Below, piece after piece: positions 6,150 through 53,050 of a stretch of 64,000 nucleotides of DNA. A model generated the notes under the pieces. The model was given only the letters and a program-made list of their open reading frames with translations, was not told where the DNA came from and made no database searches. Each line of letters begins with the position of its first letter. Position 1 is the first letter of the stretch. The stretch is from Schmidtea nova. Its lineage: Eukaryota. The stretch lies in assembly GCA_044892505.1 (NCBI GenBank), contig CM097882.1, positions 289,912,001-289,976,000 on the forward strand, read 5' to 3'. The translations under genes and the position numbers were made by a program.

Positions 6150-6740
6150 ATGGAAAAGCCACGTTCCACTTCAACGCAAAATCGGATTACTAATAAGAGA
6201 AAGTTAAAGAGCCATAGAAACTGTTCAAACGCAAACAAAATACAAGAAACATTAGAAAACTTCAAAATACGATTCCTCCAAAATGGATACGCTGAAGAAT
6301 TTGTAAAAAAATACTTCCTTAACGAACCATACCACAATAAACGCAACAATAAGAAACGCCAGAAGCACAATAACAATAACAAACACATAGCATATCTAAG
6401 ATTAATTTTCCTAAATGACACTACAGCCAATAAAATCACCAACATTTTTAACCAAACATATTTGCCAATCAACATCCGTCCTACTTTCATAAACTTTGTA
6501 CCGTTAAAATCACAAATCCGAAAGCCGCCAATTTCCAACATCTCCAAACATAAATGTCTTTGTCGTTCCACAACCCGATGCTTTTGCTTTTCCAAAAATA
6601 TAGTATATAAACTTTCTTGCCAAAAATGTGACGCTACTTACATAGGAGAAACACATAGAACTTTTCGCACCCGACTTAATGAACACACTAAAAACAAAAC
6701 CAGTAATTATTACGAACACTGGGAGAAAGTACATCTATAG
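6150..6740 (+). pseudogene. Penelope-type RT thumb and GIY-YIG endonuclease fragment
   Basis: NGY and NIVYKLSCQKCDATYIGETHRTFRTRLNEH motifs. Confidence 0.9.
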
Positions 6741-11717: not shown

Positions 11718-13272
11718 CAATGTGCTTTCAATAAATGGGTTGTCTTTTTATTTTTATTCTAATAAATTTTTTATTTATTCATTAATAATTAATGTTTTCA
11801 ATTGAGGGTTTAGTCAGTGTTAATCCATTAAAATAACGGGGAAATAAAGAATCAGATAATTTATTATTTATTTTTAATTGGAGATTAGTCACTTATATTT
11901 ATAAGAAATTAATATCGAAATTCATAATTTAATCAAAAAATATACTATTTATAATAGTAAGTAGTTTAATTTAAGAAATAAATATATTGCGTTATAAAAA
12001 ACTTTGATTTTGACAATTTATGTAAAACAAAAATTAACGATCAACAATACTAATGAGTGCAATGCATCCATTCCTTGATTACATTATTTTCTGTAAATTC
12101 TGGATAACTGGATTTAATTATGTGCTACAATGCCCCGTATTTTTGGATATTTATTTGTCATTATCATTTTAAAAAGCCAAATTCTGAGATATATGTAGTT
12201 GTGAAAGTAATCTTAACCAAAATATCGCATTTATTAAATTTGATTACTCGTTAACTCTTTCACATTTTAAGTACCAATTTACTGAGACCGTTTTTTATTT
12301 ACTATTTTGTGCCCAAGCGGCGAACGATTTACACGCAACTGTTGTAACATGATTGTTTTGTTTGTAATATAATCTTCAAAAAAATGTGCCTTTCTTCATT
12401 TAAACAAATATTCAAAAACAAAGTTTGGGTACATCACGGAAATTTGATTGAAGATAAATTCTTTGGGGTAGCTACCTCAAGCAACATACGAAAAACAACC
12501 ATAATATTAGGTATTACAGTGAGAACTACCTCTTATGCTAAAAAGGTAAATATACCGTTCAAAAAAATTGTTTCTGAAACCTTTATGAATTAAGTCCTAG
12601 CTTAAAGATATGCAATAATATTAATTTAGTAAATATTGAAATAATGAAAGATGTTAATTAATAATTTATGTCAAATACACTATACCAGGGATTGCAAAAT
12701 TTTCAAGTCTCGTAAGAGACTTGTGTTGGGCCCGGTGAATCGCAAAACAATCTTAAAAAGATACAAATTAAACATAAAAATAAGAATAGAATTAAAGAAA
12801 ATAAATTACCAACCATCAATGAAAGACAAACAATCATCAAGCACGGAAAACCTGAAAGAAACAGCATAACAATACAAATAATAATAACAACACAGAACTT
12901 ACCGCTAGACCGAGATGAGAGAACTGTGTGATGAGTATTAAACCAACCAAGCGAAAATAAGACCTATCAAAATGTCCTCAAATAAAATAAGCACAGAAAA
13001 CAATAATTACCAATGAGCAATTGAAAACCACCGAGGCCTGAAATAGAAAGAATAATGAATAGCAAAATTACAATAAAATTACCGAAGCGAGAATGAAATT
13101 ATGAACGGAACAAATGCGGAGGTGGACCGCTCAGACAAGATGTAGAAACTAAATATAAAATAAAAATCACTGGAGCATAAATAAAAGAATAAACATCAAA
13201 CTCACCGGTCTAATAGAGAAAAGCACAACAATCAAAAATAAATGGCTAGAAAATAAACAACCGTGCTAAATT

Positions 13273-13443
13273 CTGATTGGCCAGAAGGCAAGGCCAAAAT
13301 AGTATAAATACAGCAGCGAAATCAGTATTGTCGTCATTATTTTTACCAAGTGTTACTTCACTAGTAAACTATCCTTCTTACTAGTTGTGAATCAGAATAC
13401 GATTGTAATTGAAGAATCTGAGTGAAATAAAAGGTACGTGAGT
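13273..13443 (+). promoter_or_regulatory. Pol II promoter and putative non-coding leader exon of unit A
   Basis: Inverted CCAAT (CTGATTGG, 13273), TATAAATA (13303), Inr-like TCATT (13334), and splice donors GTACGT (13434) / GTGAGT (13438). Confidence 0.6.
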
Positions 13444-14394
13444 TAGTTGTTATTGTTATTATTATTAACCCCTCATATTAAAATACATAAGTTTTGTCCC
13501 GAAGGTCAAACGATCTGACGGGATTCTCGGCCTCTCGGCACAATAAATTTTCATGCGAGGTGCTGATGCGGCGAGACTATAGGTGTTCTAACTAATTAGG
13601 AAGGGGAAGGGTGCACATAGCGTGTTCAAGTAATGGGTGAACAGAAGAGTTAAATCAGTACCCGCGAGGATGGATAGGTGGCCAGAGTTAAGGTCAAACC
13701 CAATCATTGTCAATGATAATAGATAACATAATAAATGCGAGAGTACGAGAGAAACCAGAATACTAAAGACTGAAGTCGATTCGTACAGCATTTAGGGATA
13801 GGAGTTCCCACTAAGTAGTCAACCCAGGGTCATGCTTTCCACAATAATAATTATCGTGTATGAATCCAAGCAACTACAAGACCTTCCCGATAAAAAAATC
13901 GACGAGCAAGTTGACCAAGGTTTGTTGAATGTTTACTGTATGATTGTTATGAAAATATGAGTGACTGATGATCAATGCGATATAGAGTTACGATCAGGCC
14001 TACAAAATAAGTAACATCTACGTTCTAGATCTGCGTGGTAGTAGTGTACAAATCACTAGTCAAGCCGATAGTAGTAGGAATGCGTAGAGTGGTTATAATC
14101 AAATACGACTGAATACTGTCATATGATCAGAATTTTGACAAAAATCTACAACAACTATGAGTAAACTCCACCAGGTAATAATCTTAAGAAAGAGTTTGTA
14201 TGATTAAAGCGAAAGCGTATGATGGGGTATGAATGAGGTATGGTGAAAAAATGCGTGCCACTGTTGACATGTGATGGAATGATGCGAGAAAGGTCTGACC
14301 CTTCAATTAATGCCTCTATAATTTAGAAAATGAAACACCAAAGAGTACAACGGCGGAATCTGACCCTTCAATTAATGCCTCTATAATTTAGAAA

Positions 14395-14958
14395 ATGAAA
14401 CACCAAAGAGTACAACGGCGGAATCACGCTATCCAAACATTGAATTTCGAAGATTCAAAACTCATTCCCACCGCCATAAAGCAGTCGGCCGAACGACACC
14501 TGAGAGCCTGGATGCGAGGCCACGTCGACCCAGCCACCCGAGGAACTATAGGGTCCTTCCAGTTAAGAGTGCGATGGGAAGGCGATCCGGAATGGGCACT
14601 ATTGTTACAGATGCCGAGTCGAGCCCGTAGCCGATGGTTTATACAGCTCGAGAACCTCCAAAGCCAACCCAAGTGGATATTAAGCGGCAATTCTATGACA
14701 GGTTCCGACTTCTACAAACTCGGATACATCCTAATGGATCAACCCCGATGTACCTACACGGGAGAAAGGCAACCCTACCTTCATGTACCAGGGAATGTAA
14801 ACGTAAAAACTCAGTTGGGGCCAGACGACGAAAGACTATGGGAAGTCTTTGCATATCAGGATCGGCTATGTTGGGACCCGTGCCCTGAGATCTACCAGTC
14901 AGACGGGAAAGGACGAGCGGACCGACAATTTAACCAAGACCTATTGGAGTTCTTCTGA
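14395..14958 (+). CDS. Unit A ORF1, 187-aa protein of unknown function
   Basis: Intact GC-richer ORF; acceptor TTTAG ends 4 nt before the ATG; AATAAA at 14998; homologous to decayed unit B ORF1. Confidence 0.7.
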   Translation: MKHQRVQRRNHAIQTLNFEDSKLIPTAIKQSAERHLRAWMRGHVDPATRGTIGSFQLRVRWEGDPEWALLLQMPSRARSRWFIQLENLQSQPKWILSGNSMTGSDFYKLGYILMDQPRCTYTGERQPYLHVPGNVNVKTQLGPDDERLWEVFAYQDRLCWDPCPEIYQSDGKGRADRQFNQDLLEFF

Positions 14959-15205
14959 AAAACTAGATGTGAAGGTGCCAGGAATTGTGATAAAATTAAT
15001 AAATAGCTGTACTAAGAACTCTTGTGTTTAATCTAGAGAGAATGATGCCAGGAGTGATGTTGATTATGAATGGGTGACTGTGTGATAAAGAGTAAAATGG
15101 AGTAAAGTGTCGTGAATACTAATGACATAACATTTGAGGGTAGAGGGGGGACATAAGACCGTAGATGAACCATAATACGATTGATCTTCGTTTCCTCCTT
15201 TTTAG

Positions 15206-15763
15206 ATGAATGCGAATAAAGATCGTGACTATAGAAAAGAGGCCAAGGAGTACAAGTTGCGAGTTAGGATTCTCGAGAGCAGACTACGGCAGCTAGGGGA
15301 GGAACATCAGCTGATGAAAACCACATGGTTTCATCTGGAACGAGTAAAGCTTATTCAACAAGCCAGGTTTAGAGCCAATCGAATTGCTGAGGAGCAAACT
15401 CGAGAAACTGCCGCCGTAAAGCTTGAATTTAACAACTATGTGAGGGCCTCCACCAAAGAATTCATAACGCAGCAGTTGCGGCCTCTCATCCGAGCCAGCA
15501 CTTTCAATCGCTGGATAGGGACCACCAACGTTTCTACGGGTATACAAACCGATATGGATTCGAGTTCCATGACGAATACTCCAATGAACATGTCTCAACT
15601 TGAGGGCTCCAAACGAACGAAGCGTCGGAATCGGTTAGGAGTGAAACGAAGACGAGAACGAAGAGAATATGCCGAGAGAGTCGGAATTGAGGCAGACTTT
15701 CTAAGTGGTCTTACCGAGAAACAATTGATCGCCGTAATAAATCCATCAGTGTTATTGAATTAA
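15206..15763 (+). CDS. Unit A ORF2, 185-aa coiled-coil protein with an Arg-rich (NLS or nucleic-acid-binding-like) C-terminus
   Basis: Intact ORF; polypyrimidine tract and AG directly before the ATG; AATAAA right after the stop; homologous to unit B ORF2. Confidence 0.72.
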   Translation: MNANKDRDYRKEAKEYKLRVRILESRLRQLGEEHQLMKTTWFHLERVKLIQQARFRANRIAEEQTRETAAVKLEFNNYVRASTKEFITQQLRPLIRASTFNRWIGTTNVSTGIQTDMDSSSMTNTPMNMSQLEGSKRTKRRNRLGVKRRRERREYAERVGIEADFLSGLTEKQLIAVINPSVLLN

Positions 15764-16299
15764 AAATAAATGTATACTAGTTAAATGGCTTGACTTGAAT
15801 GTTTGAGGTACGTATGTGAAATTTAATCCAAAGTTGATTAAGTGAAGCTGATTCATTTTGTGCTACAGGACACATCGAAATTGAACTCACCTTAGAGGAG
15901 ACAAAGAGAGCGAGTAAGAAGGGACCGAAATAAAACCACATAAACTTTCTAACGGTAGTGGTGGACCCGTGAATAAACAAGGGAATAGTAGCCGCAAGGT
16001 TGCTCACCTGCCTTGTCATTTCACAACGTTGATACAGTACTAACATGATGAGTAGTTAGGGATACATCATGGATGTCAGCGGGGAGATGTTTTTATGTTG
16101 GCGAGATCACCCTAAAGTATAAAATCAAATAGGATCTCAGTTGAACATCTAACTAACCCACCAGCACTTGGCTAGATTATTCCTCACGGTCTACTAGAAA
16201 AATTATTTAAATATCAAGAGTGCCTTTAACTTTAATCTGTTTATTTTATTTAAAAACAAACAAAATTGTAAGATATAAGTTTATATACCTACAAATAAC

Positions 16300-17200: not shown

Positions 17201-17751
17201 TTCAATTTCATATTGCTTAAGTAAAGTTCGAAACTGGCGCCGTTGTAGGCTTCTTCCACAGATGAAATTACAAACTTATTGAAAAAAGGATAAAAATATG
17301 GCAAACTCTGAGATGAAATGACATTGATAAGTTCATGGGTGGGTTCTTGAAATTTAACTTTTGTGTATTATAGATCCTTCATCCATAACCTTACATTAAC
17401 GAACTGTCACACTCGTATGCCCCTAACTATTCCCTAACTAGCTAGGTTGGAACTGCATACGGTGGCGGAAAAATGATGGACAGGCGAGCTTTGTCACCAA
17501 AACTTCTCTCCATTTATTTTCCTCAACAAGTCCGTGCTGCCGATGGAAGGTCTTACGCTATCATTCTCTAATTTCAGTCCTCTCGATACCTAATTAGCCA
17601 ATTTTATTCTTGTCTAATGCTATTAACAAATTCTTAATCTTGGTTGTCAATAACTACCTCAACCACTCCCATCCTTACTTTACAACCAAAATTCATTACG
17701 ACACGAAAAATAACTCAACACGAAGGGTTTTGGCTAATGATTTTATTTACA

Positions 17752-18307
17752 TTAAATTAACATGATTTCATTTAAAAGGTCCAGCTCTGATAGTTCATTG
17801 GGATGGTCCACTTGGGTAGCTAGTTGTCAGACGAAATCTCGTTTATGCCGCCTTTGCTTTGGACCTAATCGTCTTTTTCTGGAGCAGCCAAATAGGTTTA
17901 TTAATGGACTTGGCAGTGGCTGGATGGAAGCCTGTGGTGTAGGTACTAGGACTTTGCAATCAGTTCCAACAGAGATATATTTTGTCTCTTTGGCCGTCCA
18001 CCTTTGGGCCGTGATTGGTCTAATAAGGGCCCTGAGCTCCGTGTCAATGAATTATTTTGTTACTGCATTTAGGCAGTTTCGGAGTTCCAGCTGCACTGCG
18101 TCTAGTTCGGTATTGGTTTCTGTTAGCGACCCTTGCACTCTAGTCGTTTTCATTATTTGATCTTTCATTTTCTCTGGGGGGAAACCATTTTAGTTTTAAC
18201 TCATCATTAGCAGTTGTGAGACGCTTGATTTGGCGCTGCAATTCTCTAATTTGCCGATCTTGCCTTTGTTTTGTAAATTTATCCGAGAATTTCGTTCCAA
18301 TCATCAT
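17752..18307 (-). pseudogene. Unit B ORF2 (one frameshift, two stops), homologue of ORF 15206-15763
   Basis: Reconstruction: ...ELKLKWFP/EKMK...ELDAVQLELRNCLNAVTK*FIDTELRALIRPITAQRW...RKRRLGPKQRRHKRDF...ELSELDLLNEI. Confidence 0.75.
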
Positions 18308-18447
18308 TAAATTTCTACACCAAATACAGAAACACATTTAATTATTACTTAGACTTATTTGAAATAAAGTAAATTCGCATACAATTATAAATTTTAATGA
18401 AGCCAAAAAGAAAAAACATAAGTGGGCAATACATTTATTAAAGGATT

Positions 18448-18969
18448 AGTCAATCGACACCGAGTTTATCTCGATTTGAAAAAAATCGAGTGGATCTGCA
18501 TGGCCATTCTAATGGGACTGAGTGGGTTCACTAAAGTCGCCGAAGATTTCCTCTGGGCATCTCGTAGCGGTCGGATGACCGTGGTGAAAATTAAACCTAT
18601 CTCCTTTAGAGTTGAAGCTGGGATGAAGCCACAATAGATCATTGATTTTTGGAATCCGTCGTTGTCTAGGAGCAGAACAAACTAGTCTGCATACCCCGGT
18701 TTATACTCCTCGCCGATAATGATCGGCCAACTGGGGTAGCCACGGTACCACACATGATGTCGTGGGTGATCCCACACCATGAATGGGCAGGCGGTATCCA
18801 ACTCTTGTCTCCACTGACACATTTTTTGACGTACTTGCTGTAACACCTCGAAGGGTAGGAGTTTCAGCGGGCTTAGACATAGTTTTCTCCGGACACATTT
18901 TCCATCTTTTCGACCCCTGCGACTTGCAGCTGGTTTTTGGTAAATATCATTCTTTCGGGTCACTTTCAT
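18448..18969 (-). pseudogene. Unit B ORF1 (stops and a frameshift), homologue of ORF 14395-14958
   Basis: Motif pairs B/A: KLLP/KLIP, VWYRGYPSW/VRWEGDPEW, *FVLLDN/WFIQLEN, CPEEI/CPEI, DPLDFF/DLLEFF. Confidence 0.7.
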
Positions 18970-19454
18970 TATTGTCTGAAATAGTTTATAATATTTAAAT
19001 CCTTATTTGAATTATTTCTCTCATCGACTCTGATAGCCCATTCCTACATAACACTACTCTGCGCGCAAACTCTGACTAACAATACTTTCTAGGTTGCAAC
19101 AAAAACGGGTTTAATCTCTGGGGTAATAAAATGTCTTGTCTTACTACTCGGTTTGTTGATCATCAATCCTCCTTAATTAAATATGTTACGCGTGAAAATT
19201 AAAATAGTCAATAAAACATGGAGAATGACATAATTTTTAAAAATTAGTAAAACAGGTAAAAATTAAGACAAACGGAGTTAAAATGACATAATATGAAAAT
19301 TTAAAAACTAAGTACTAAATTTTTGGGAAATCTCGGAATAGTTAAAATTTAAATTATTTTAAAGTAAAATTAATTTATTATGAAATAAAATTTTTAACTA
19401 AATATTTCAAAATACAACATTTATATTTATTTAATAAATTTTTTAACAAAATCA

Positions 19455-23300: not shown

Positions 23301-25840
23301 TTTTTTCATTAGGTTTTAAAAATTGTGTCATTCTTTTGTCTTTGTAAAATTTTCCATTCTTTATTGCCTATTTTTAATGAACCACGTGTTTATTACCCTT
23401 TTTTCTTAAATATTTATTTAAAATTTCAGTTCAAATATTCTAGAGTCCCTTTCTTGTCTGAAGAAATTGTGGGAGTTGAAAATTTTATTTAAAAATATTT
23501 CAATGTATTTTACTTGTTTAAAAGATTTACAAGTGTTTTTTATTTACCATTAAATCTATTTTTCAGTTTAAAATTACCAGAATCGCTTTTTGCCCTAGAT
23601 AAATCTGAGATAAGAAAATACAGTATAAAATACCATACTAAAATTCGTTATAGAAAAATATCTGACCATACTTACCATTAGAAAATACTGAGACCAAAGA
23701 TTACCATTCAAAAATATCAGGACGAAAAATTCCTATTCAAAAACTCAGAGCTCCTTTTTCGCCCTAGAAAAATCTGAGAGTTGAAAATCTTATTCAAAAT
23801 ATCAGGTCTGAAATATCCTATAGAAAGAACTGAGACCAAAATTCCCTATTCAAAAATCCAAGACCGAAATTCTCAATAAAAAATACTGAGAGTCCCTTTT
23901 TGCCCGAGAAAATTCTGGGTGTAGAAAATCCAATACAAAATATTAGGACCAAAGTTCCATATAAAAAATACTGAGACCGAAAAATCGTATTCAAAAGTAC
24001 TAGACCAAAATTCTCTGTTCAAAATACTGAGACCAGAAGATCCTAATTAAAAATACCAGACCAAAAATCCCTATTCAAAAACCCAGAGTCCCTTTTGCCC
24101 GAAAAAAGTCTCAGAGAAGAAAATCCTATACAAAATATCAGGACTAAAATTCCCTTTACAAAAGATCCGAGGTCAAAACATAGTGGCCTTCTAGATCACT
24201 TTTTTAAGGGGGTTCGGGGGTTGTGAGCTAGAGGGCCACTAACTACCTACTAGTGTGGCTAGTGCATGTGTTGGTATCATAGCAAGATCTATTTATAATT
24301 TAAAATAAAAAAATTATCTTCATTTAAAATAAATAATTTAATCAATACATAAGGTAAATATACACACTGACAGGCAGAAAGTACAAACAACTTGATTAGT
24401 TGATTTAGTTCTTTGAGAATGACACATCGATAATTTAAAAATATTGTTACGAAAAATGGTAACATGAAAATATTTTGGAAAATACGCGCATGCAGCCTTC
24501 GATAACTGAACGCATGGGCTACACATAGTGTCTGAACGACTGATGGTAGAGTTCAAGAAAAAAAGAGAAAACCCGACACATACGTCGAGATAAGGATGAA
24601 ACGATAGAAAAGAGGCATCTCAGAACAGAACACACAATTTGAGTGCAGATTGGATTTACATACGAAGGACCGCACTAGAATTTAATGGGAAAGACCATTG
24701 CTTGTATATTGAATACGAAAAGCATGATCAAAGAATAAAATCGGTATTAAAATAAAAAGAACAATTTATTAAAAGTGTAGGAAAATTTTCCATTGAAATA
24801 TCGTAAACATAACACAGATATGAATGAAAATAGAATTTAAATTAAATTTTATTGTTTTTATCAATCAGTTAACGCGCGCAGAAAGTGGATACACACATTA
24901 TTTAATAGAATTAAAAATAAATATTTAGAAAATAAATAAAATGAATTATAAAATTTAATTTACAAAAAATAAATAAATAATTCATTTATTAAATAAATAA
25001 TTTAAATTTAAATTTAAATAAATATATATAAATTAAATTACTAATGTTTCAATTTAATGAATGGAATGCGTGAGCAAGGGCATCATTTAGAAATAGTATA
25101 AATAGACGCCGAAAAATTATAACTATCACTTCTTTTTAATTTCTACTTTTGGAGTCGTCTGTTTTCATTCTACCAGCAATCACCAGTTTCGATTGATTTT
25201 ATTCAGTGGAGCGAAGCAAGCATGTAGGTTTTATTTTGTAAGGATTATGATGGTAACTATTACGCGGTAATTTGCAATTTGTTAATAAACTTTTGAGTTA
25301 TAATTTTGTTTTTGTTAAATATTATCATGCTCTATCAAATGATTCCCGATTAAAATGATTTAGAAGGGGCTTTGTTGGTTCACAAGCCGCGAGTCCCCAG
25401 TTGGTTGTAAGTGCTTGGACCCAATAGTCGGTTAGAATCTTCGTACCATCGTCTTATTTAATTTTATAGGATGGCGAGGGAAAAAGGAAATTAAAGGATG
25501 ATTATTCAGATGTTTTTCGGAATAAATAGATATGAATCTGAGATAGGATAAAGAGATAGAAAGTTAGGAATTAATAATGCGAAAGGGCCGTAAATATGAT
25601 ATGTGCATAAGTCCTTCTATCGGCAGCAGGAACTCGAAAGAGATAATATAGTGAGGAGTAGTTTTGGCAGCAAAGCTCACCTGCTCACCAGATTCTCGAA
25701 ACCGTGTACATTACTGTAATGCACAAAAATGGTGGATAACAATTGTCATTTTTATAATTTTTATATTATGTTGTTAGCACCGTCATTATTATGGTCGGTG
25801 CCCTCGCTGTCACCGAGGACCCCCTTGTGGTTTACTTGCA
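20340..25840 (+). mobile_element. Unit C: 3' portion of a large LTR-retrotransposon-like element (AT-rich internal region, repeat array, PPT, LTR-like segment 24222 to about 25840)
   Basis: G-rich tract AAGGGGGTTCGGGGG (24206-24220) then TGTGAG; TATAAATA at 25097 and Inr-like TCACT at 25126; ends near TTACTTGCA after two hairpins; homology to units A and B. Confidence 0.55.
23560..24180. repeat. Degenerate array of about 30-bp repeats immediately upstream of the PPT
   Basis: Recurring CCTATTCAAAAATACTGAGACCAAAAT-like units with periodic GAGTCCCTTTTTGCCC variants. Confidence 0.8.
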
Positions 25841-26068
25841 GTAAATTTATTATTTTTATAATAATTTCAATTCAAAATTTGAATTTGGCTTGCTATAGCA
25901 AACGCTATAGTAAGCCAAATGACAAATTAAATAAATCGTTAAATTAAAAACTAAAATCAAACAGAAGAAATTTTATTCATATAATTGCTACTATTGCATA
26001 CCTCCTTGGAGATTTCAATACGTCAAATAATTTCGAAACTTGAGCATCGATTCCATTCTCTATCAAAT

Positions 26069-26715
26069 AAAATCGAACGAAAAAAAGAAATTATATCCCT
26101 ACAATAATTAATATCCTTACTAAAATTAAAGCTGAAGATTTCGGTTTCTCAAACCCTTACAGTCAATTAATTCCTTGTAATAGCTTTTTGCCTATTATAT
26201 ATCGAAAATAAAAAAGTTTATAAAGAAGATAAAACCCATTACAAAATCGAACGAAAGAAATTATATCACTACAATAATTAATATCCTAACAAAAGTTAAA
26301 GCTGAAGATTTCGATTTCTCAAACCTTTATATTCAATTAATTCCTTGTAAAAGCTTTTTGCCTATTATATATCGAAAATAAAAAAGTTTATAAAGAAGAT
26401 AAAACCCATTACAAAATCGAACGAAAGAAATTATATCACTACAATAATTAATATCCTTACAAAAGTTAAAGCTGAAGATTTCGATTTCTCAAACCTTTAT
26501 ATTCAATTAATTCCTTGTAAAAGCTTTTTGCCTATTATATATCGAAAATAAAAAAGTTTATAAAGAAGATAAAACCCATTACAAAATCGAACGAAAGAAA
26601 TTATATCCCTACAATAATTAATATCCTTACAAAAGTTAAAGCTGAAGATTTCGGTTTCTCAAACCCTTGCAGTCAATTAATTCCTTGTAATAGCTTTTTG
26701 CCAATTTAATATCGA
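26069..26715. repeat. Tandem repeat, 170-bp unit, about 3.8 copies
   Basis: ACAAAATCGAACGAAAG recurs at 26241, 26411 and 26581, with a variant at about 26069. Confidence 0.95.
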
Positions 26716-28619
26716 GACATTAAAGAAATTTCAAAGAAAGTTCTAAAAAAACGCAAGAGAAGGTTCGAAAGAATTTAATAACGAAATTTTAAAAGTAAAT
26801 ATTATCTATATTATCTAAATAAAATTTTATTAAATATTTTTATTTGATTGAATATTATTTTATTTGTACCTCCATTCAAACAAAAGCATTACACAGCATA
26901 CACCCCGAGTATCTGCACACTTATATAGCAAGACTCTCTCGGGCTCTACAACGTCTTCTAACACACACACACATATACACAATTTAACTTAACCTAGATT
27001 GTTTGAATTAAGACTATATAAAACGTTTCAAAACAATTACCAACATGGTACAAAGGAGTAACTATGGGTACAAGAGTGAATCAATTAACATTTATGATGG
27101 GATGTGGGGTTTGTAATCCCTAGAGACCAATAATAATTTAGTAACAGTCCATACCACCAACAATATAGATTTCGACGAATATATTTTCAATTTACCGAAT
27201 TACAAAAAGGTTCGAATGGTTAAAAGTAAATGAATGCTGAATGAATAAGTTTATTTGAACAAATGTTACTGCTTGGAATTTTGTGATGATTTAATAACTA
27301 ATAAAGATGTTTTTGAAGTTGTAAAATAATTCCCACTATCTTTTTATAAGAGATTAGATTAAGTGCGGAACCGAATGGGCATTATACCATCTATCGACCG
27401 CCTTTGAACTGACTCGAGACATGCAATCAATTATAGGTCCGATTCAGTCGGCGTTTACATTTTGGAAATGTCCACCCATTTGTTGCAATACCAACGTTAC
27501 GCCGGAGTGGGCAACAATATGGTTAAATAATGTTTATATGTAGGGTTGTTGAGGAATAGAGCAATAATAACAGTCAATGTGATCTGGTTTATCAGAAACC
27601 CACAAATAGTATTTTATGGCGGATGTAGACCAAAAGGTACAATAGATATCTACACAAATCATCCTAAGGACAAAATTGACATGGATTATTTTGAAACAAA
27701 ACCTGAAAATTAGGCAGATCCCTGCAAAGGATTTTCTTATAGATAAAAATCTGATGTATTTAATGTACTTTTTTCTTTGTTTGAACTCTACGATTTGTGT
27801 TTATGCTATTCTTTGGCCCTACACGACAGAAATCAAATTTTCGGTTTGCACAGAAAAGAAAAATGCTTAATAAATTTACAAATAAATTTATATTTACTAC
27901 TTTATGTATTTGTGAGTAATATTTGTTTTCTAACATTCAATTTACATAACAATTATTAGATGTAATTGATCCAAGATGGCGCATTGCATGTAATGTCAAT
28001 GTTAACAATTATTGGAACTCACACGCAGGTCACAGTTCGAAATATTGTTGATTACTAATTAAAATGTATAATTTTATTTTATTAAGTTATAATAAAATCG
28101 ATGATGCAACAAAAAATATCTTAAAAAATTATAAATGTACTAAAATTAAATTTTTCTACCGTATCCGAAAAGTTTCCATAAACACAAATGCAAGTGAAAA
28201 CATATAAGCTTATTTCAATTAAATTTTACTAGTGTTATTTTCTGTGGTCTTCCTTTTATAATCTTATATAACGTGTAGTGCCTCTACTTTATGTATATTT
28301 AGAAATTGACTAAATTTGTTAAATTTATATTATTATATACTAAATTATTATATAAAAAATAAAGAAAAAGATTTAAAAAATGTTTGTTTAAATAACAAGA
28401 AAAATGCACGTTCAAAAAAGAGTACAGAAAAGTAAAGATGGAGTTCACCAGAGATTCATATGCAATTCATCACCTAGCACCAGAACGACAGCACAACCAA
28501 TATGATGAACTGATCAAATCCAAAGCACAACTGTATCAGAATTTCGTATTTAATAAAATTTTATTGGTGTTATTTATGGCGTATTTTGTAGTTACGATAT
28601 AATGCTATTCGGATGATAT

Positions 28620-29246: not shown

Positions 29247-30955
29247 CAGTGAAACCTCGCTTAACGAGCACCTCTTATAACGAGAAATTCGCATAACGAG
29301 TAAAATAAATTGTAAAAAAACGACTCGCTTAACGAACGATTTTTCGCATAACGAGTGAAAGTCCTGGATTGTAAAAAAAATTAACGTAAACAAAAATTTA
29401 AAAACAAAAATATTTGCAGCATTCTTGTTATCATTATTTATGGATACATCAGTATGTGTTTACAATTGTTCCGCTAGCATCTTTTGCTTGTGATATAAAT
29501 TTTTACAAACCTGTGTTAATACAATGTTTTTTGTGATTTTTTTAGTATAAAGTTTATTAATTATTTGTGATTTTTATTGTAAAATTAATAAACCTTGCAA
29601 AATGTTGCCGAAAAAAAGTCGCAAGAAGACAGTCATAAGAGAATAAAAATAATCATAGAAACGAAGCATAAAATCATTGAAAATCGAGAACGGGGTGTGA
29701 GTGTAGCGGATCTTTCGCGCACATACGACCGGTCCACATCTACGATCTGTACTATCCTTAAAAACAAGGACAATATTATGGAGATAGATGCGTCAAAAGG
29801 AGTTACAAGAATATCTACGCAACGGTTGCGTGTTCTCGACGATGTTGAAAGGCTGCTTCTTATATGGATAAACGAGAAGCAATTACAAGGCGACACTATT
29901 AACGAGAACATCATTTGTGAGAAAGCAAAAATGATTTTCGACGACCTAGTAAAGAAGAAGCCAAGAATATCAACGGCCGAAGAAGAAGTATTTAAGGGAA
30001 GTCATGAGTGGTTCGAAAAATTTAAGAAAAGAACCGGCATCCACAGCGTTGTGAGGCATTGTGAAGCAGCAAGCTGCGACAAGAGGGCAGCAGAGAACTT
30101 CATCGGCGACTTCAAGAAGCTCATAGATTCTAATGGCTATCTGCCGCAAACAAATTTTTAATTGTGACGAGACGGGTCTTTTCTGGAAAAAGATATATTA
30201 CTTATATTACTGCAGAGGAGGATGCAATGCCCGGGCACAAGCCAATGAAAGACCGCCTCACGCTGCTTTTTTGTGCCAATGCAAGCGGCGATTTGAAAGT
30301 TAAATCGCTGCTTGTTTATCATTCTGAAACCCCACGAGCATTCAAAAAGTGTAAATTCCAAAAAAACAGGCTAAATGTGATGTGGAGGTCAAACAAAAAG
30401 GCGTGGGTGACAAGTAACCTTTTTACTGATTGGCTCAATAATGTGTTTGGTCCTTCTGTGAAAAAATATTTACTTCATATGAATCTGCCGTTACATTTCT
30501 TGCTTGTTATGGATAACGCAGTAGCTATGCGCGCTACAAATTTATTTAATGATAATGCTGTATTGCCTTTTCATCAAATTTTGAAGCGTCGCCAAAAACA
30601 AACGTCACTAGACAGCTTTTTAGTAAAAAAAAATTAGTTATGTATCATTACAACAAACTTATTATTTCGAATACTTTTTAATTTTTGTAAAATGAATTTG
30701 TATTACAGGTTGGTTTATTTCGCGACAGAAGGAAAGATCAAGATGATTTACCATCTTTAACAACATGATCATGTATATAATTTTCATTCAATAAATGTAT
30801 ATGTACATAAAATTTTTTGAGTATTTTTTTCGGTACGGAACGAATTATCGTATTTTTCATTAATTTATATGGGAAGCGTTGTTTCGCTTAACGAGTGTTT
30901 CGCTTTACGAGGAACATTCTGGAACGAATTATGCTCGTTATGCGAGGTTCCACTG
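29247..30955 (+). mobile_element. pogo/Tigger DNA transposon, internally deleted
   Basis: TIRs CAGTGAAACCTCGCTTAACGAGCA / TGCTCGTTATGCGAGGTTCCACTG with TA on both sides. Confidence 0.93.
29595..30637 (+). pseudogene. Tigger/CENP-B-like transposase (frameshifted; DDE domain truncated)
   Basis: HTH_psq/CENP-B HTH, FKGSHEWFEKFKKR, NCDETG across a frameshift, KDRLTLLFCANASGD, LLVMDNA. Confidence 0.92.
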
Positions 30956-32469: not shown

Positions 32470-35400
32470 CTGCTTTTCTTTCATAATCCATCGATACAAA
32501 CAAATATTTTTTCTTTAATTAAATTGAATATCTAAATTAAATTAATTATCACATTCCCCCGTGATCAGTACGACGAATCAAACTCGTAATGATCAAGATA
32601 GGAAGGCTTCCTTCGGTTGCCAGCCCAACGCGTGCCTTCCTTACTCATTTCTGGACTTCTGATGTCAACCTGATTGTCTTCAAATTCGCATTCGACATTG
32701 CTGGATTTGATAGGTTGATTTGGCACCACTCGGATGTCTGCTACATGACGCGGTACTTCGTCAAGCTCTATGTTGGTAGGTGAATTTATGCCAGTGATGA
32801 TTCTACTGGGCCACTGAGCAGTGCATTTGGCCGGAACTGGCTTTATAACAACCTTCTGACCAGTTTTACATTTACCTGGTCTAGATATTACGCGCTTCTC
32901 CTCGACACCTCTGTGAAATTTCCATTGTTACTTAAATAGACACTATGATGGAGCTATACTCTGATTCTTCGCGTCTTTGGGTGCCATGTTATACCAATAA
33001 ACAATGTCCCGTGGGTCTGGACGACTCCTGGCTGCATAGGATTTTATTGTCCGGTGGTTTCTCTCCACGATCCCATTCCCAGATGGACGGTAGGCACACC
33101 TGTATGTCGGCTTTACCTCCCATCTACAACATAAATCTTATAAAGATTTAGAATGAAAACTAGGCCCATTGTCCATGAGTAGCTCACGAGGTGGACCTCT
33201 CTCTCGAAACACTTCTTCGAGAATTTTTACAATATTTTGTGCAACTTCATATGGTATCCTTCTCCAAATGGCAAATCTGCTAGGCCCACAATCAACGATA
33301 GTCAAGAAAATGGATCCCACGTAGTGCGTTACATATACACCTAGTCTTTCCCAATTTTTATCGACCCCTAATGATCCATTTTCCCACTTAACTGGCGATG
33401 GATCGATAGATTTTCATTCAATACAATTTCTTACCACATTCTTTATGACGTCTCGTGGGGTGTCTGGGTTTTCTAACTGAATGAAATAAATAGATTTTTC
33501 CAGACCAAAATGGTGTTTGCTGTGACGGTTCTTTATTTGTTCTGACGATAAGCCCACGCAGGCAAAAGACTCTCTAGACTTCAACCACCTCTTTGGAACG
33601 CGTGTCAGTATATCTGCTCGGTTTTCAGCTGATTTCACCAATTGTACCCAAATAAGAATTCTGTCATTTTCGATAATCTCTTTTATTATTCCCAACCGAC
33701 GTCTAATCAGAGTCTCTGAAATTCCATGAACACTAATCCTACATACATTGTTAAGAACTGTTCTCAGCCAGCCTACTACCGTCGCCGAATCCACCATCAG
33801 CTTGATTTTTTAACGCCCCATTTGATTGCTAAGTTTACGCCTTTAAGAACTGCATCGAGCTCAGCGATGTTTATATGTGAATGATCATCACTTTCCCTGA
33901 GCCAAGTTGAATCCTCCACGACGTGGCCATTTATCACTAATACGACACCCAGCGCTAAACTGCTAGCATCACACCATAAAGTACATTGATCCCTAGTGTT
34001 TACAGTCCAGGTTCCTTTGACTGGATCGTCCAGTTCAATGAGACTCATCACTTTAATCAATCTCGATTCGCACTCTGCTCAGACGAGATCATCCCAATTT
34101 GTACCATCCGCAATTCTCTTGATAACTGCAAGCCACTCTGAGCCACCCCGCGACCGGATAACGCCCAATAAGCTTTCCACAAATAGAAAATAATTTACGC
34201 CGAGTAACTTTACCTTCAATTGGGTCAACTGGATTTCCTCTTGACCATAACAGGTTACCGTGACGATTGCGTTCAATTTTTAAACCAAGAACCTTTGTAT
34301 CCACTAACAGTTCCGCTGGCTTCGTTACTAATCCATATTGAGCCAAATGTTTCACAACTTCATCGATACTGACCATACTCGTGTTACCAGCTATGTCATC
34401 AATGTAGTGATCTGTCGCGTTCAGGATTCGCGAATCGAGGCTCAGCACCTTTCTCAACACCAAGGACATTATCTTTGGAGCACAACTAAGACTAAATCAT
34501 AGTCTTGTAAGAGAATACGTCTTCTTTTTGTAGCGAATCCTTTGGAATTCCCAAAGATCTTTACTTACATGCAACTGTAGATAAGCATTTTTTAAATCAA
34601 GCATCGATAGCTGTTTTCACACCTATCTCCATCGTTTTAGACTCTCCCCACAAACATCACTATCGCCAGTGTGACTCTTCACAGATTCATTGAGTTCCCT
34701 AAAGTCAATAACGGGTCGAACTTTTCCTTTGTTTTCTTGTACTGCAGCTAGAAGAGGAAGAATTCCGCAACCGGTTTTTTCAGCGGGGATTAGCCAGCCT
34801 TCCATTATCCATCGCTCCACTTCAGCTTCATATTCTTGTCGCACTCCAGGCTTAATTGCGTATTCGGCAACGTTGTTCCGCAATATAGGGGGTTTGTCTT
34901 TCCATTTCCAGGATATTGTCCACTTGTCTCCTTCAAAACTTGCAGCGAAATCCTCGTCATCAATTTTCACTTGTTCTTGAACTAAAGCCGGCATGGATAT
35001 TCTAGTGCATTCACCAAACTGTACGCCATAATTGTCAATTGAGACTCCCCCAAGGCGTTCAATCGTATCGAAACCTAAAATAACATCCACTCCGGCTACA
35101 AGATTCGTCTTTATTAAGCAATTTAACCAAAAACTTGTTCCTCGAACACCGACTTTCGCCTTCACAGTGGACTCTTCTACCATCTACTGCAACAACAACT
35201 CTGGCTTCACCACTTCCTTCTGCACAGATACGGGAAACAATGGTTTGCGAGCATCCATAATCAACTAGTCCAGTGCACGATTTTCCATTCACTCTGAGTC
35301 TGACAAGTACTCGCGCCATCCCTGACATCACTGAGAAACCGCTGGCGCTCCAGTTTCTCTTCTGGCGTTTCCCTGTGTGTTTGAAGAGCATTGTCTCGAC

Positions 35401-35570
35401 AAATGCCCTTTGATTCCACATGTCCAACACTCTTGAGAGGGGCATTTATTTTTGAAATGTCCGGATTTTTCACATCCGTAGCAAGGTTTGACTTCTTTAC
35501 CTGGCGCAGAATCACTTCCTTTCACTGCAATTAGACCAGTGCAGCCGTTTTGTTCTGATATTAGAAGGTT
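32470..35570 (-). mobile_element. Decayed, 5'-truncated Ty3/Gypsy retrotransposon (gag knuckles, PR, RT, RH, IN, PPT, start of 3' LTR)
   Basis: Two CCHC knuckles (35328-35525), protease LVD(Y)GCSQT, RT RPVIDFRELN and YIDDI, RNase H WCDAS...NIAELDA, integrase LLMDNGPSF. GGGGAA|TGT at about 32553. Many frameshifts. Confidence 0.92.
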
Positions 35571-47969: not shown

Positions 47970-49088
47970 GTGTATGTACACTATTGCTGTTGGTGTGTTT
48001 ACTAATTTTAGTCTTTCTGTTGTCTCTCTATGCTGGAATGTTCTTGTTCTCTTGAGCTGTTCCATTTCTTGTTTGGTGGTTGAATCATATTTGGGCTCGT
48101 CATAAACTTTTCCTAGTATTTCCTCGAATTCAGCTTCTTGTTATAGCATAATTCGACATTTATTCACATCTGCCTTATAGATCAATGATGATGCACCGGT
48201 ATTATATGATCTATGTTGTACAGAACAGCTTGGAAAATTTCTCATTGATAACGTATCTGGATCAAAATATCCCGCATATGTCTCTAATTTCACTTGATAC
48301 ATTTCTATTACTACTACATTGCTGACCACTTTTCCCAATATATTGTATGCTCCTCCTTTACAACTTCCGTTTGGTTTATTGACGTATCCTGCTGCAAATA
48401 CTCTTGTTATTTTAATTGCTCCTGGTTGGACAGCTATTATTATGTTTCCTGCTAAAGTTATCCGTTTTGAGGTAAACGCTTCATTGCACTATTCGCTATC
48501 CAGTGATATTACCGTTGATTCCATTCCTGGTTCAATAATTGATGAGTACGAATATTGTCCACAGTAATACGCAAATAATTTTCTCGTAACCGCGCATTCC
48601 CTTATTTCAGCTTTGATGAGGTCTGATTCATGATACACGTTGTAACCTATTTTATTCACAACTTGTTCCAATTTTTTCGGTGTGGCTTGTTTGTAATCTT
48701 CCGTGTGTTTTAATGAATATTTCTCGCTAAGTTCGATTTTGTCGTAATCGTATACTACAAACGCTGTTGCTCCTTTTATGCACATCATCCAAATCAGTAC
48801 TGTGGTCAATATTGCATGCATACTCTTCCCATATGCTCTTTGATCACGAAAGTTCATTGATTCTTCGAATTCTGTTAATAATTCTCTCAAATTTACTTGC
48901 ATGGTTTCGGTTTGATCTATTTTATCTACTGAGTTGATGAATGTTTTCCAACCTCCTTGTTTCATTACATACGGCTCTATCAGTTTTTCAATGATTTCCG
49001 TTATCGTAAATATATGACCATTTGGACTGAGTAGTATATACAGAGTTAGATATCCCGCAGATTTTGAAACCCTATGCCAGCAAAACAT
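47970..49088 (-). pseudogene. Fragment of a polyprotein: Bcl-2-like BH1/BH2 segment, signal peptide and chuvirus-like envelope glycoprotein N-terminus (in-frame stops at 48489 and 48141)
   Basis: CWHRV ... YVMKQGGWKTFI; hydrophobic AILTTVLIWMMCIKGATA; then FVVYD(C>Y)...YSL...D(C>Y)...ECAV...YYCGQYSYSS...C...GSCKG. Confidence 0.65.
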
Positions 49089-49249: not shown

Positions 49250-52200
49250 AAAATGGCTGCAAAACCGATTCCTAAAAAAGGAGTTCCTTGCAATGGAAAA
49301 AATTTCAAGATGAAAATAACGATTACAAGATGAACTTAGACGTGTAAAAGATGAAAACAAACAACTATTGCAAATAAAATCAATGACAAAAGAATTAATA
49401 ATCAAAACACAAGATAAAAGAGAAGAAATAGTAAATAAAAAATCAAATCCACGGGCAGAGAAAACAAACAATCCAAATCCTATTAATGTAATAAGATATC
49501 ATGATATAGATTTTTCACAAGTCCTTGATGATGTTGAGAAAAAAATTCAACAAGGATATGCGGTAGGTATTTTTGGTGTGTGTTGAAACACAGTAAATAA
49601 ATATCACACCGAATCAATAGATTTAAATTTATCAACCATGACGCAATTACAAGGTAATAGAGAATCTTTTAATGATAAATCAGACATGGAGGAATTCATC
49701 TTTACTGGAGTAAAAAGTTTTGTCAAAGATATATTTGAAAGACTAAAAAGAAGTGATTTTGGGAAAGGGGTTGATTTTAAGGGAGAATATTGGGCACGAT
49801 TGACTTATATAAAAGTGGTGGAAAAATATGTAAGTCAAATGAAAAATATGTAAGTGGTGGAAAAATATGTAAGTTTAAAAAATTAAATTTAAAAAATACT
49901 AAAACATTTTTTAAACTCTTGCAAAATGTATTAATGTTAAAAATTATAAAATTAAATGTGTTCGAAAAAAATGTAACTTGTAATCAATGCAATAATCAGA
50001 TGTCATTCATATCTGTCAATTCATTGGTTGATAAATTTTCATTTCAATGTCCTGAGTGTAAGTCGAGACATTCTATCCGCAAAGGATCGACATTCTATAA
50101 TGCGAAACTTTCAATTCAAGAAGTGTTGGCGGCTCTCATAGGATTTGTAAGTAATGAGCCTATTAAAAAACTTGCAGAAACACTCCACATATCGAAAAGG
50201 TGCCTCGTAAAGTGGTATTCAATATTCCGTAATTGTATCACCATGCACCTTGAAAGTAGTTTCCAACAACTTCGTGGAATGGATGAAGTAGTTGAAATTG
50301 ATCAATCTGTCATTGGAAGACGAAAGTATAATGTTGGAAGATCAAGGGACCAACAATGGTTATTTGGATGTATTGAAAGATCAACCTCTAAAATATTAAT
50401 TAAATGTGTTGATAGCAGAACTAAGAGAATTAGATGCTTTAATCAAAGATGTTATCTCTGATAATACATTAGTGATGTCTGATGAATGGCCTGCTTATAT
50501 GAGCTTCTTTTCAGAAAATAACTGTAATTATTCCCATTTAGCTGTTAAACACAAAGAAAACTTTGTGGATCCCAATTCAAGTGCTCATACGCAGAACATT
50601 GAGTGCGTTTGGAGAAGACTAAAATACATGCTCCGTGCAAAAAATTATGTTCGACGATCAAAACTTTCATAATATGTTGATGAATTCTGTTTCCGAGAAA
50701 AGTTTAAGTTCTTTGAATATCATGATTATTTATGTTTATTGAAATAGTTAAATTGTTGAAATGCTCTAAAAAAATGTTTTTGTATTTTTTAAATTTAATG
50801 TTTTTTAATTTAATGTTTATTGAAATAGTTAAATTGTTGTTAAATTTAATGTTTTTCAATGGACTTACATGTTTTTCATTGGACTTACTTATTTTTCAAC
50901 CACTTACATATTTTTCATTTGACTTACATATTTTTCCACCACTTACATATAAGTCAATCGTGCCGAATAATTTTCCACCACTTACATATAAATCAATCGT
51001 GCCGAATATTGTTGTATTCCATCTGATGGGAATTGTTTTATAAAATGTGTTATTGAAATAATTTCTAGAGAGATGGAAAATAAAACACCAAAACAAATAG
51101 CTAAATTTTTGACACAAGATTTACATGTAGAATATTATAATTTGGATAATGATTTTATCAACAAAGATAATTGGATCATTTTGTACAAAAAAAAGAAATG
51201 ATGTTTAATTTCAAAATCAAACCAAGATTGTGGAACCCAAGAATTAAAAGTTAATTTTGAAAAACAAGATTATAGTGGCAAAGATTGTCATGTTGGAAAC
51301 ATAACATCATGTATTTCGATAATAATGTTGGAAAGATATACAAAAATATTTGTATAAAAACCAAGGGGATTATCGTTCTGGAATCATGACTTTGGCTAGA
51401 ATTCCCAACTTTTGTAAAAACCAAAATATAAATGTTTTGTATTATAGTGGAAAAGATAGACATTTGTATCCCAAAGCTAATGTTCAATCATGTAGATTCA
51501 ACATGGTTTTATACTTGTATGAAAATCATTTCTGTTTAATTGATAAATATTATAAAAAGAAGGAATAAATGAGATTAATAAAAATTATATTAAACTACAT
51601 GTTGATTATAATTCTAAAAATGTCGTACAAGTTTCAGAATTCACAACTAGTACCAAAAAAATATCTGAAGATGATACATTTGCATGGGAAGCTTCACCAG
51701 AGGAATTCAATAATTGTTTTTTTAAAAAATGGGCAGCTGGGCTGATATCTTTAAAAGATGTTAAACAAGTATTGGGTATAGATTAGAAATAAAAGACAAA
51801 ACACAACAAGAATTACAAGAAAAAACTTAAACATTACAAGAAAAAGCCAAAATATTTACAGGGTTTGATTGTATTATTCAAATGTTTAAATATATAGGAA
51901 ATATTCCAAACCAAACAAGTGCTCTATTAATTGCACACAATAGAAGTAAATTTGACAATTATTTGGTATTACAAGAACATGGAATTGTTCCATACAAAAT
52001 TTTAAAAACATCACAAGGTATAATTAATCTTCAATTTAAAAATATTTATACATCAAAAGATAATCAAGAAATAATAAAAAAGAAATTTAAAGAAAAACAT
52101 CCAAATATTAAAAATCCAAAAGGGGATAGATTTTTTCAAAAAATTACATTTAGATGTTCTCTTAATCACATTAAAAATAGTTTGGATAATATATGTAAAG

Positions 52201-53050
52201 CATTTAAACTTCCAGTAGAATTAAGCAAATCAAAATTAAAACATGATGATATAAATTTGGAAAATGATTTAGATTGTAAATTAAAATGGGAACCATATTT
52301 AAAATTAGATGTTATATCACTAGCAATAATTATTATACAATATTCGTCAACAATGGAAGATTTGGTTAAACAAAAAATGTCTTCATGCATGTTATCACCA
52401 TCATTATCATTAAAAGGTTGTGTAAAACATCATGATAAACAAGAATTAAAAAAAACAATTGATGAAGGAGAAAAAATATCAACACATGTTGATCTATATG
52501 TTCGATGGTTTATAAGAAAAACTATAAAAAATGGTCGAGTTTCTGCAAACATTAACAAATTTGAATCACCCAAATGGAAAAAAATCGAAATGATATTAAA
52601 CGAATATTTAGGTGAAACTTTTAATCAAACTATTTCACAACTATTAAAATCTTATTCCGAATCAATAGTTTATCCAGCACTAAAAATACTACAACAAGAT
52701 TCTGGTTTAGAATTATTAGAAACACACAAGACAAAAGAATATTTAAAAGATGAAGAGAAATGTATTGAAAAGATGGTTATCGTTTATCAACTAATTTTAC
52801 TAGTATTTTTGAATGGTGTGAAAAGAATCCAGAAAAAATAACCCAAAACAAGATAACAAATATATTTTTAGAATCAAGAAAAAAAATAATGATTTTAGAT
52901 TGGGAAGATCAAGATTTTTTAATGGCGTTTTTTGCAACAAGTTTATATCAGTCAGCAATGGCAGATGAAAATTCTGAATATTCAAAAGTAAAAACAGCTC
53001 GAGGTTTTAAAAAATCTAAACAAGTTGAAATATTAAATCTACTCAACACA
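49250..53050 (+). pseudogene. Polinton/Maverick (adintovirus-like) protein-primed DNA polymerase B remnant, interrupted by Merlin
   Basis: Exo II-like LIAHNRSKFDNYLVL, FRCSL, YLKLDVISL, RKTIKNGRV. CIPSDGNCFIKC is rejoined across the Merlin target duplication. Confidence 0.75.
49793..51003 (+). mobile_element. Merlin (IS1016/ISXO2-like) DNA transposon with frameshifted transposase (about 49930-50730)
   Basis: TIRs GGCACGATTGACTTATAT... with internal AAAAATATGTAAGT repeats; 8-bp target duplication GAATATTG; VVEIDQS...RRKYNVGR, SDEWPAY, HTQNIE. Confidence 0.93.

Follow-up and report, generated by a model that had tools for sequence, protein, structure and literature searches.

What kind of element carries one promoter and one short leader followed by two open reading frames (ORFs), each with its own splice acceptor and polyadenylation (poly(A)) signal, and how would such genes be expressed? 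This question is raised by element A, a 3.4-kb repeat in a 64,000-nt stretch of the planarian Schmidtea nova (GCA_044892505.1, contig CM097882.1, positions 289,912,001 to 289,976,000, forward strand; this whole stretch is hereafter called the window, and plain positions refer to it). Comparison with other copies revealed that element A is a solo long terminal repeat (LTR) of a Burro-type giant Gypsy retroelement. Its two genes lie downstream of the LTR promoter, and a single leader is probably cis-spliced to either acceptor, each message ending at a poly(A) signal of its own. The earlier note, which had proposed this design from the letters of the window, was right about the motifs: the CCAAT-TATA-initiator (Inr) promoter, donors, acceptors and AATAAA signals of element A sit where it placed them, and both frames are open (187 and 185 aa). 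It had overlooked, however, where this unit belongs, namely to a Burro-type retroelement, of which it forms the LTR.

Identity of element A and its full-length relatives

The LTR ends were placed by comparison with 10-kb stretches around the best matches in the host genome (1.25 Gb, GC ~29%). Element A has TG...CA ends and a short target-site duplication (TSD) and lacks an internal region, as a solo LTR does (Table 1). Thirty-nine of the 56 stretches were delimited at both ends (17 were not), comprising 26 copies with a perfect 4-bp TSD, eight followed by a primer-binding site (PBS), one preceded by a polypurine tract (PPT) and four with none of these marks. Conservation was assessed in 34 LTRs of 2.5-3.6 kb with a TSD, PBS or PPT, leaving out one 4.6-kb copy and the four unmarked copies. 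Both LTR-borne frames, ORF1 and ORF2, are highly repeated, with at least 150 scored matches each; the 3,209 and 8,489 first-look candidates, respectively, are not copy numbers.

One PBS-linked LTR copy opened the way to gag-, env- and protease-like frames of the full-length relatives. A search with the env piece gave 113 scored matches, many of them within frames of ~5,080 codons, and four of the five regions fetched around env matches held complete elements of 29.1-29.5 kb with 4-bp duplications and LTR pairs 99.85-99.97% identical, the fifth having a truncated 3' LTR. Both ORFs were present in each LTR of the full elements (ORF1 homologues at 37-42% identity, ORF2 at 58-63%), with ORF2 frameshifted in the 5' LTR of one element. 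The paired LTRs represent a sister subfamily of A, to which they are ~72% identical in DNA over the 3' part; LTRs nearer to A and linked to a PBS were also present (L061, L065 and L066). The PBS is complementary to tRNA-Pro(TGG) genes of the same genome.

The polyprotein of the full elements, 4,959-4,968 aa counted from the first ATG, contains in order CCHC, a mononegavirus-type fusion domain, protease, reverse transcriptase (RT), RNase H, integrase and ankyrins. The succession from protease to integrase is that of Ty3/Gypsy elements, and the env domain (PF24664, E 1.2e-71) stands in frame between CCHC and RVP. Separate ORFs code for RING and RING-TRAF-MATH proteins, and MATH-TRAF, RING and ankyrin domains were all found; no Pfam row for BIR or BCL2 appeared in the eight pieces scanned, the first ~230 polyprotein residues and a 116-aa ORF lying outside that scan. 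Burro/GYPSM1 elements are giant Gypsy-like LTR retroelements of dugesiid planarians, ~30 kb long and present in thousands of copies, and the available part of PMC6431247 describes for them a single polyprotein of ~5,000 aa with gag, an in-frame mononegavirus-like env, protease, RT, RNase H, integrase and ankyrins, as well as MATH-TRAF and RING accessory proteins. The element is accordingly assigned to the Burro type, by organisation and description and not against the named Burro1-4 sequences, with the difference that TRAF-MATH is here encoded by a separate ORF downstream of the polyprotein. A Ginger-like DNA transposon was considered and rejected, given the existence of LTR pairs accompanied by a PBS, a PPT and gag-pol. 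In addition, two candidate LTR pairs drawn from match lists turned out to be a segmental duplication and unrelated neighbours.

Several further observations were made on the full elements. The PBS begins 6 nt past the LTR end (L083:5398-5421) and a purine run stops ~10 nt before the 3' LTR (L085:8214-8234), gaps that are wider than usual. The tRNA-Pro(TGG) genes include a tandem array with a 308-bp period (G000:C1:459.61-459.66 Mb, L133-L136), and the tRNA pattern matches 1,106 places genome-wide. Ahead of the first ATG of the polyprotein, its frame extends for another ~120 open codons, none of them an ATG (L083:8947-9310; equivalents in L087, L091 and L099), and a peptide similar to this stretch also occurs in copy L062. 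Moreover, a strong donor lies ~850 nt upstream of the polyprotein ATG in 4/4 elements. The polyprotein might have a non-AUG start or receive a small exon from further upstream.

Conserved expression signals and selection on both genes

The TATA motif was kept in 34/34 LTRs, a CCAAT upstream of it in 32/34 (mostly 26-27 nt away) and the Inr-like motif in 30/34. At the end of the leader, an AATAAA lies within 1-3 nt of GT[AG] in 29/34 LTRs. These motifs persist although the mean identity of the neighbouring intron is only 0.36. The CCAAT-TATA-AATAAA-donor arrangement was found once in the window versus 0.033 expected per 64 kb (30 first-order Markov simulations); since the pattern was taken from this very site, its conservation in other copies is the stronger test. 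The G+T fraction downstream of AATAAA was 0.62 for the leader, 0.57 for ORF1 and 0.68 for ORF2, compared with 0.33 for AATAAA in the unique 3' region (U3) of the LTR.

The acceptors showed a similar conservation of pattern. A pyrimidine-rich YAG (Y, pyrimidine) within 9 nt of the ORF1 start codon was present in 30/32 anchored copies against 25-32% in same-size background windows, and the corresponding pattern at the ORF2 start in 29/33 against 11-15%; the letters of the acceptors change between subfamilies while the pattern is retained. Both ORFs are under purifying selection, with median ratios of nonsynonymous to synonymous substitution of 0.15-0.31 for ORF1 and 0.08-0.34 for ORF2 among unsaturated pairs, synonymous sites being saturated in 123/231 ORF1 pairs and 77/120 ORF2 pairs.

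The same layout extends into the internal region. In one full element, a YAG lies within 10 nt of the first ATG in all seven ORFs of at least 140 aa, compared with 26% of all sense ATGs (naive P ~1e-4), and a branch-like motif accompanies most of the seven; the arrangement recurs, with a YAG near the ATG, in an eighth ORF of 116 aa. An AATAAA follows ORF1, ORF2, the RING ORF, the 116-aa ORF and the TRAF ORF. The parts of a common-leader unit, namely a conserved donor together with an acceptor and a poly(A) signal for each ORF, were thus all found, except that three internal ORFs lack an AATAAA of their own.

Predicted products of the two LTR genes

ORF1 had no match in a search of 5.8 billion sequences, and its profile gave two short matches among 1.84 billion representatives, one of which was scanned and was a repeat protein; for its structural model (predicted local distance difference test, pLDDT, 57), neither PDB nor BFVD yielded a fold match. 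For ORF2, no homologue was found with the protein of a young copy, and the atlas leads for both ORFs were all below 0.9. The alignment and a helical model of ORF2 (pLDDT 67, predicted template-modelling score 0.27) indicate long helices, a variable linker, a near-invariant Arg/Lys-rich motif and a Leu-rich C-terminus, a composition compatible with an Arg-rich RNA-binding motif and a Leu-rich export signal. ORF2 might be a Rev/CERV-like RNA-binding regulator that acts on hairpins downstream of the donor and favours unspliced RNA, a role that we consider conceivable but on the unlikely side.

A map of the LTR and a model of its expression

Recombination among the copies points to the position of the repeat region (R) between U3 and the unique 5' region (U5). 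Pairwise identities were correlated at 0.93 within U3 and at 0.81-0.94 within the segments from the donor to ORF1, and at only 0.33-0.48 across the leader, whose own sequence tracks neither U3 nor the downstream sequence. The best single breakpoints of 22/34 LTRs fell in 13265-13480, which makes up 6.3% of the LTR, and 12 pairs unlike in U3 and leader had a mean identity of 0.89 directly past the AATAAA-donor. Strand transfer swaps templates in R; the clustering of breakpoints at the leader therefore suggests that the leader is probably R, ending near 13450. Both genes would then probably lie in a U5 of ~2.7 kb, implying a strong-stop DNA of ~2.8 kb. The window copy itself is a mosaic, its U3 being closest to L117 (alignment scores 0.89-0.90) and its post-donor region and ORFs to L035 (0.81-0.95).

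In addition, the leader at 13336-13425 is hypervariable even among otherwise close copies. As a speculation, this variability could reflect swapping as R, or diversification of an efficient target of Piwi-interacting RNAs common to all mRNAs.

Just past the donor lies the two-hairpin element of Table 1, a candidate packaging or export signal. In 30 sequences, 96.9% of cells were paired and 5/24 pairs had two-sided changes; among 500 shuffles, which ignore relatedness, the covariation score was reached by none and the pair count by 13. A Rfam scan of L103, L071 and L001 gave no significant match, with three at chance level. The structure of the terminal 240 nt of the LTR had no covariation support, two-sided changes occurring in 2/63 predicted pairs.

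Under the proposed model, transcription would start near 13336, and the leader would join one acceptor, the RNA terminating at the next poly(A) site. The AATAAA at 13426 would end the genomic RNA in the 3' LTR, while U1 bound at the donor 2 nt behind it would suppress early cleavage in solo LTRs as well as in the 5' LTR. Such suppression of a nearby poly(A) signal by U1 and a donor has been demonstrated for foamy virus and described for HIV-1, according to the available part of PMC3694450. The earlier note had held that transcripts ending at this AATAAA would speak against the design; the signal is more likely the R/U5 poly(A) signal of the element itself, one that works in the 3' LTR and is held back in its 5' counterpart. 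The same leader would also serve the RING, 116-aa, TRAF, 386-aa and 174-aa ORFs downstream, the RNAs for the polyprotein, the 386-aa ORF and mostly the 174-aa ORF would end in the 3' LTR, and the genome would be the unspliced read-through RNA.

Two side observations concern the region behind ORF2. In the window copy, ORF2 is followed by one donor-like and one acceptor-like site (15809-15868), and young copies have, at a similar place, an acceptor, 11 nt and a donor (L083:5101-5118); these sites may route RNA to downstream ORFs.

The fullest version of the model combines a 2.7-kb U5 carrying two selected genes, an adenovirus-like programme with one hypervariable leader (R) spliced to up to seven accessory ORFs and a Rev-like regulator, encoded in the LTR, that sets the proportion of spliced to genomic RNA, and is offered tentatively, as a combination somewhat less likely than not. 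If it is true, every solo LTR would be a self-contained two-gene cassette, and thousands of them would supply the regulator in trans.

Alternative explanations

A number of points weigh against the proposed unit and its map. Splicing, the start site and the 3' ends are all read from sequence features. The 34 LTRs are mutually related and were taken from top-scoring matches, so that their counts are not independent trials, and the four full elements belong to one subfamily and count as one test. Among the five LTRs outside the 29 with the AATAAA-donor pattern, three have a one- or two-letter variant and two (L068 and L070) are without it. The acceptor criterion is generic (a pyrimidine-rich YAG near an ATG), the acceptor nearest to the polyprotein is weak, and no AATAAA was found after the polyprotein, the 386-aa ORF or, in 3/4 elements, the 174-aa ORF. 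Moreover, TATAAATA occurs ahead of the 3' accessory ORFs in 4/4 elements and could be an internal promoter. As to the map, an alignment-free repeat of the correlation analysis gave a smaller contrast (0.87 within U3; 0.48-0.66 across the leader; 0.59-0.88 within the downstream segments) with noisy ORF2 segments, the max-chi breakpoints include events shared by related copies and can be biased by rate differences, and the invariant AATAAA at 15972 could be the true genomic 3' end. Finally, the window copy may itself be silent: a 65-bp tandem duplication, found only in this copy and absent from close relatives, copies acceptor 1 and the ORF1 start, adding a second, upstream decoy acceptor followed by an 18-codon out-of-frame ORF.

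The alternative that survives best keeps the splicing and changes the map: a long R (~2.4-2.65 kb) would hold both ORFs, and the genomic RNA would end at the AATAAA at 15765 or 15972, leaving a short U5. The invariant AATAAA at 15972 lies inside the most conserved 240 nt, breakpoints fall near 15780 in 2/34 LTRs, and the resulting U5, at 170-380 nt, would have an ordinary length. Crossovers nevertheless cluster at the leader and its AATAAA, and the latter retains a G/T-rich downstream tract yet would serve no purpose in a long R, which makes this map unlikely. The genes are downstream of the promoter under both LTR maps.

For the downstream ORFs, the main rival is spliced-leader (SL) trans-splicing, in which an operon-like polycistronic RNA would be cut at the poly(A) sites and ORF2 onward would receive the host SL, perhaps only ORF1 being cis-spliced. 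Gaps of ~60-250 nt separate the AATAAA of one ORF from the next acceptor, and such short gaps resemble operon spacing. Planarians do have SL trans-splicing (PMC10899757, available part), and in a tapeworm the donor of an LTR uses a site which, in a sister species, accepts the SL (PMC4558846, available part). The same part of PMC4558846 indicates, on the other side, that a cis donor out-competes the SL; the donor at the leader end, kept in those 29/34 LTRs, is expected of cis-splicing and not of an outron and thus favours cis-splicing, and every ORF has an ATG of its own. A nematode SL1 model gave no signal either in the genome or in controls and is hence uninformative. On balance, SL trans-splicing appears decidedly improbable as the general explanation, and cis-splicing of a common leader is preferred.

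It is less probable still that no common leader exists and that each ORF or group of ORFs has an internal promoter, or is translated from unspliced RNA, with the AG before each ATG being a coincidence of start context. The occurrence of TATAAATA upstream of the 3' accessory ORFs in 4/4 elements, and upstream of ORF1 in 2/4, fits such a scheme, but the pyrimidine tract, branch-like motif and YAG survive sequence turnover in diverged subfamilies, and many upstream ATGs lie in the intron of the window copy. That the motifs arose by chance in AT-rich repeat DNA, or are mere non-coding remains, is hardly credible: AATAAA and TAG are indeed common in a genome of ~29% GC, AATAAA occurring in 13-16% of random 89-nt windows of the elements, but fixed-spacing conservation, purifying selection and intact ORFs in young elements stand against this, and selection and motif conservation together have already largely refuted it.

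Four runs of unspecified kind, all from one study with no more than three samples, had coverage in each of 30 bins, U3 among them; they behave like DNA and give no evidence on expression, and the lack of a GT..AG joint among 15 of the 37 joints from these runs is uninformative on expression as well.

Table 1. Positions of element A, its features and the neighbouring elements B and C in the window
Feature	Position	Strand	Remarks
Left TSD, CTTG	12720..12723	.	Identical to the 4 bases right after 16166
Solo LTR (element A), 3,443 bp	12724..16166	+	Starts TGTTGG, finishes CCAGCA; sharp homology ends in other copies
Putative U3 (enhancer/promoter region)	12724..13335	+	Upstream of TATA/Inr; relationships unlike those of the downstream LTR
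Promoter	13276..13338	+	Reverse CCAAT (ATTGG) 13276-13280; TATAAATA 13303-13310; Inr-like TCATT 13334-13338
Putative leader exon, probably R	13336..13433	+	Hypervariable between subfamilies; mean pairwise identity 0.34
AATAAA, splice donor(s) and G/T-rich tract	13426..13445	+	AATAAA 13426-13431; donors GT at 13434 and 13438
Conserved two-hairpin RNA element	13498..13578	+	Just downstream of donor; would be present only in unspliced RNA
Private 65-bp tandem duplication	14294..14423	+	From repeat comparison; relatives without it
Acceptor 1	14370..14391	+	Branch-like TTAAT, pyrimidine-rich tract, TAG; AG 14390-14391
LTR ORF1, 187 aa, orphan alpha/beta protein	14395..14958	+	ATG 14395; intact in 22/34 LTRs
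AATAAA after ORF1	14998..15003	+	Follows ORF1 stop in most copies
Acceptor 2	15180..15205	+	Branch-like TTGAT, strong pyrimidine tract, TAG adjoining ATG; AG 15204-15205
LTR ORF2, 185 aa	15206..15763	+	ATG 15206; intact in 16/34 LTRs
AATAAA after ORF2	15765..15770	+	At or overlapping the stop in most copies
LTR end	15921..16166	+	Mean identity 0.89; further invariant AATAAA at 15972
Right TSD, CTTG	16167..16170	.	Matches left copy
Element B, 5'-truncated LTR of a related family	17331..19026	-	ORF1-like and ORF2-like frames, both broken
Element C, older repeat of another family	24584..27165	+	Insertion at ~25715-27035; parts 24584-25714 and 27036-27165

Other elements of the window

Two further elements had been put forward as instances of the same design. 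Element B was said to repeat it on the minus strand, and both acceptor-ATG contexts are indeed there; however, no promoter or leader for it was found in the window, the minus strand lacks a promoter-leader-donor arrangement, both frames are broken, and similarity to the family of B stops at 19026. Element C, proposed as a further example, has to be set aside: it belongs to another repeat family, and although TATAAATA is present in 6/9 of its relatives and an acceptor-like AG-x-ATG in 4/9, no ORF of at least 45 aa was found in any of the nine. Since B is truncated and broken and C is of another family without an ORF, only A is complete, and the window does not hold three working examples. B and C are decayed or truncated and lend little independent support to the design, which instead gained from its conservation in the family of A and from the internal accessory ORFs. 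An insertion in C at 25715-27035, which starts with TG and has a 170-bp tandem repeat inside, may be a nested solo LTR.

The window also contains remnants of other transposons. A fragment at 48489-49088 on the minus strand with a mononegavirus-type fusion domain (PF24664) probably derives from another env-bearing retroelement. Polinton-like remnants at 51882-53557 include a DNA polymerase B of the protein-primed type and a region weakly matching a double-jelly-roll capsid, and a small LTR element at 55509-59319 has 239-bp repeats 98% identical and broken gag-pol-like frames. The remnants at 1727-2449, 6150-6740, 29778-30637, 33414-35445 and 49934-50461 we take to be a Tc1-like element, a Penelope-like element, a pogo-like element, a DUF7047 retroelement and a Merlin-like transposase, respectively. 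Elsewhere in the genome, a segmental duplication that spans at least 12 kb at 99.96% identity (L054-L058, G000:C2:454.52-454.57 Mb) contains a solo LTR, and the gene beside it is presumably TRAF-like.

Relation to known systems and implications

Protein-coding sequence within an LTR is known from sag of mouse mammary tumour virus and nef of HIV, both of which lie in U3 upstream of the promoter; a solo LTR of those viruses therefore cannot transcribe them from its own main start. Both genes of element A, in contrast, are downstream of the promoter. The adenovirus major late unit likewise uses one promoter and a common tripartite leader with alternative acceptors and poly(A) sites for many ORFs, but adenovirus is a DNA virus, so that the likeness to A, whose splicing is predicted, is an analogy of design in which homology is not expected.

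Closer parallels are found among retroviruses and retroelements. Foamy virus and HIV-1 have a poly(A) signal and the major donor near the RNA 5' end, and foamy virus has both in each LTR, as here; the foamy virus donor is upstream of the signal and that of HIV-1 195 nt downstream of it and outside the LTR (PMC3694450, available part), whereas in A the donor is ~2 nt downstream of the signal and inside the LTR, and accessory genes in U5 are not described for either virus in the material available. In the Gypsy element Cer1 CERV of C. elegans, an accessory mRNA is made by splicing, and the protein it encodes promotes the export of unspliced RNA (PMC10309623, available part), and ORF2 resembles CERV and Rev in its Arg-rich motif and Leu-rich end, a likeness that bears on a predicted role only. 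Plant LTR retrotransposons such as Ogre and Retand carry conserved extra ORFs without known function, and Ogre has long LTRs, but the ORFs described there flank gag-pol on its upstream or downstream side within the internal region and are not part of the LTR (PMC7264820, available part).

Burro elements and their accessory ORFs are already known. The available part of PMC6431247 names accessory ORFs and mentions neither genes inside the LTR nor a splicing scheme; LTR genes or their splicing are likewise not mentioned in the available parts of PMC8532177, PMC11410931, PMC13465017, PMC4558846 and PMC7264820. The literature on Burro elements and LTR-located genes, of which coverage was partial, yielded no account of Burro LTRs that contain genes or of how such genes are spliced, so that a prior description is possible. 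For one Burro element, a supporting role in the survival of stem cells and in regeneration has been reported (cited in PMC13465017, available part).

The proposed unit suggests a way, open to testing, in which the many accessory genes of Burro elements could be expressed, and a 2.7-kb U5 and a donor fused to a poly(A) signal would be unusual answers to reverse transcription and to discrimination between the 5' and 3' LTRs. Moreover, the loss of an element by LTR recombination normally leaves a non-coding promoter, whereas in the present case two intact genes stay behind, complete with promoter, splice sites and poly(A) signals, at no fewer than 150 sites and probably at thousands. The leftover repeats could thus act as small gene cassettes, a direct route to the expression or domestication of retroelement proteins once the element itself is gone.

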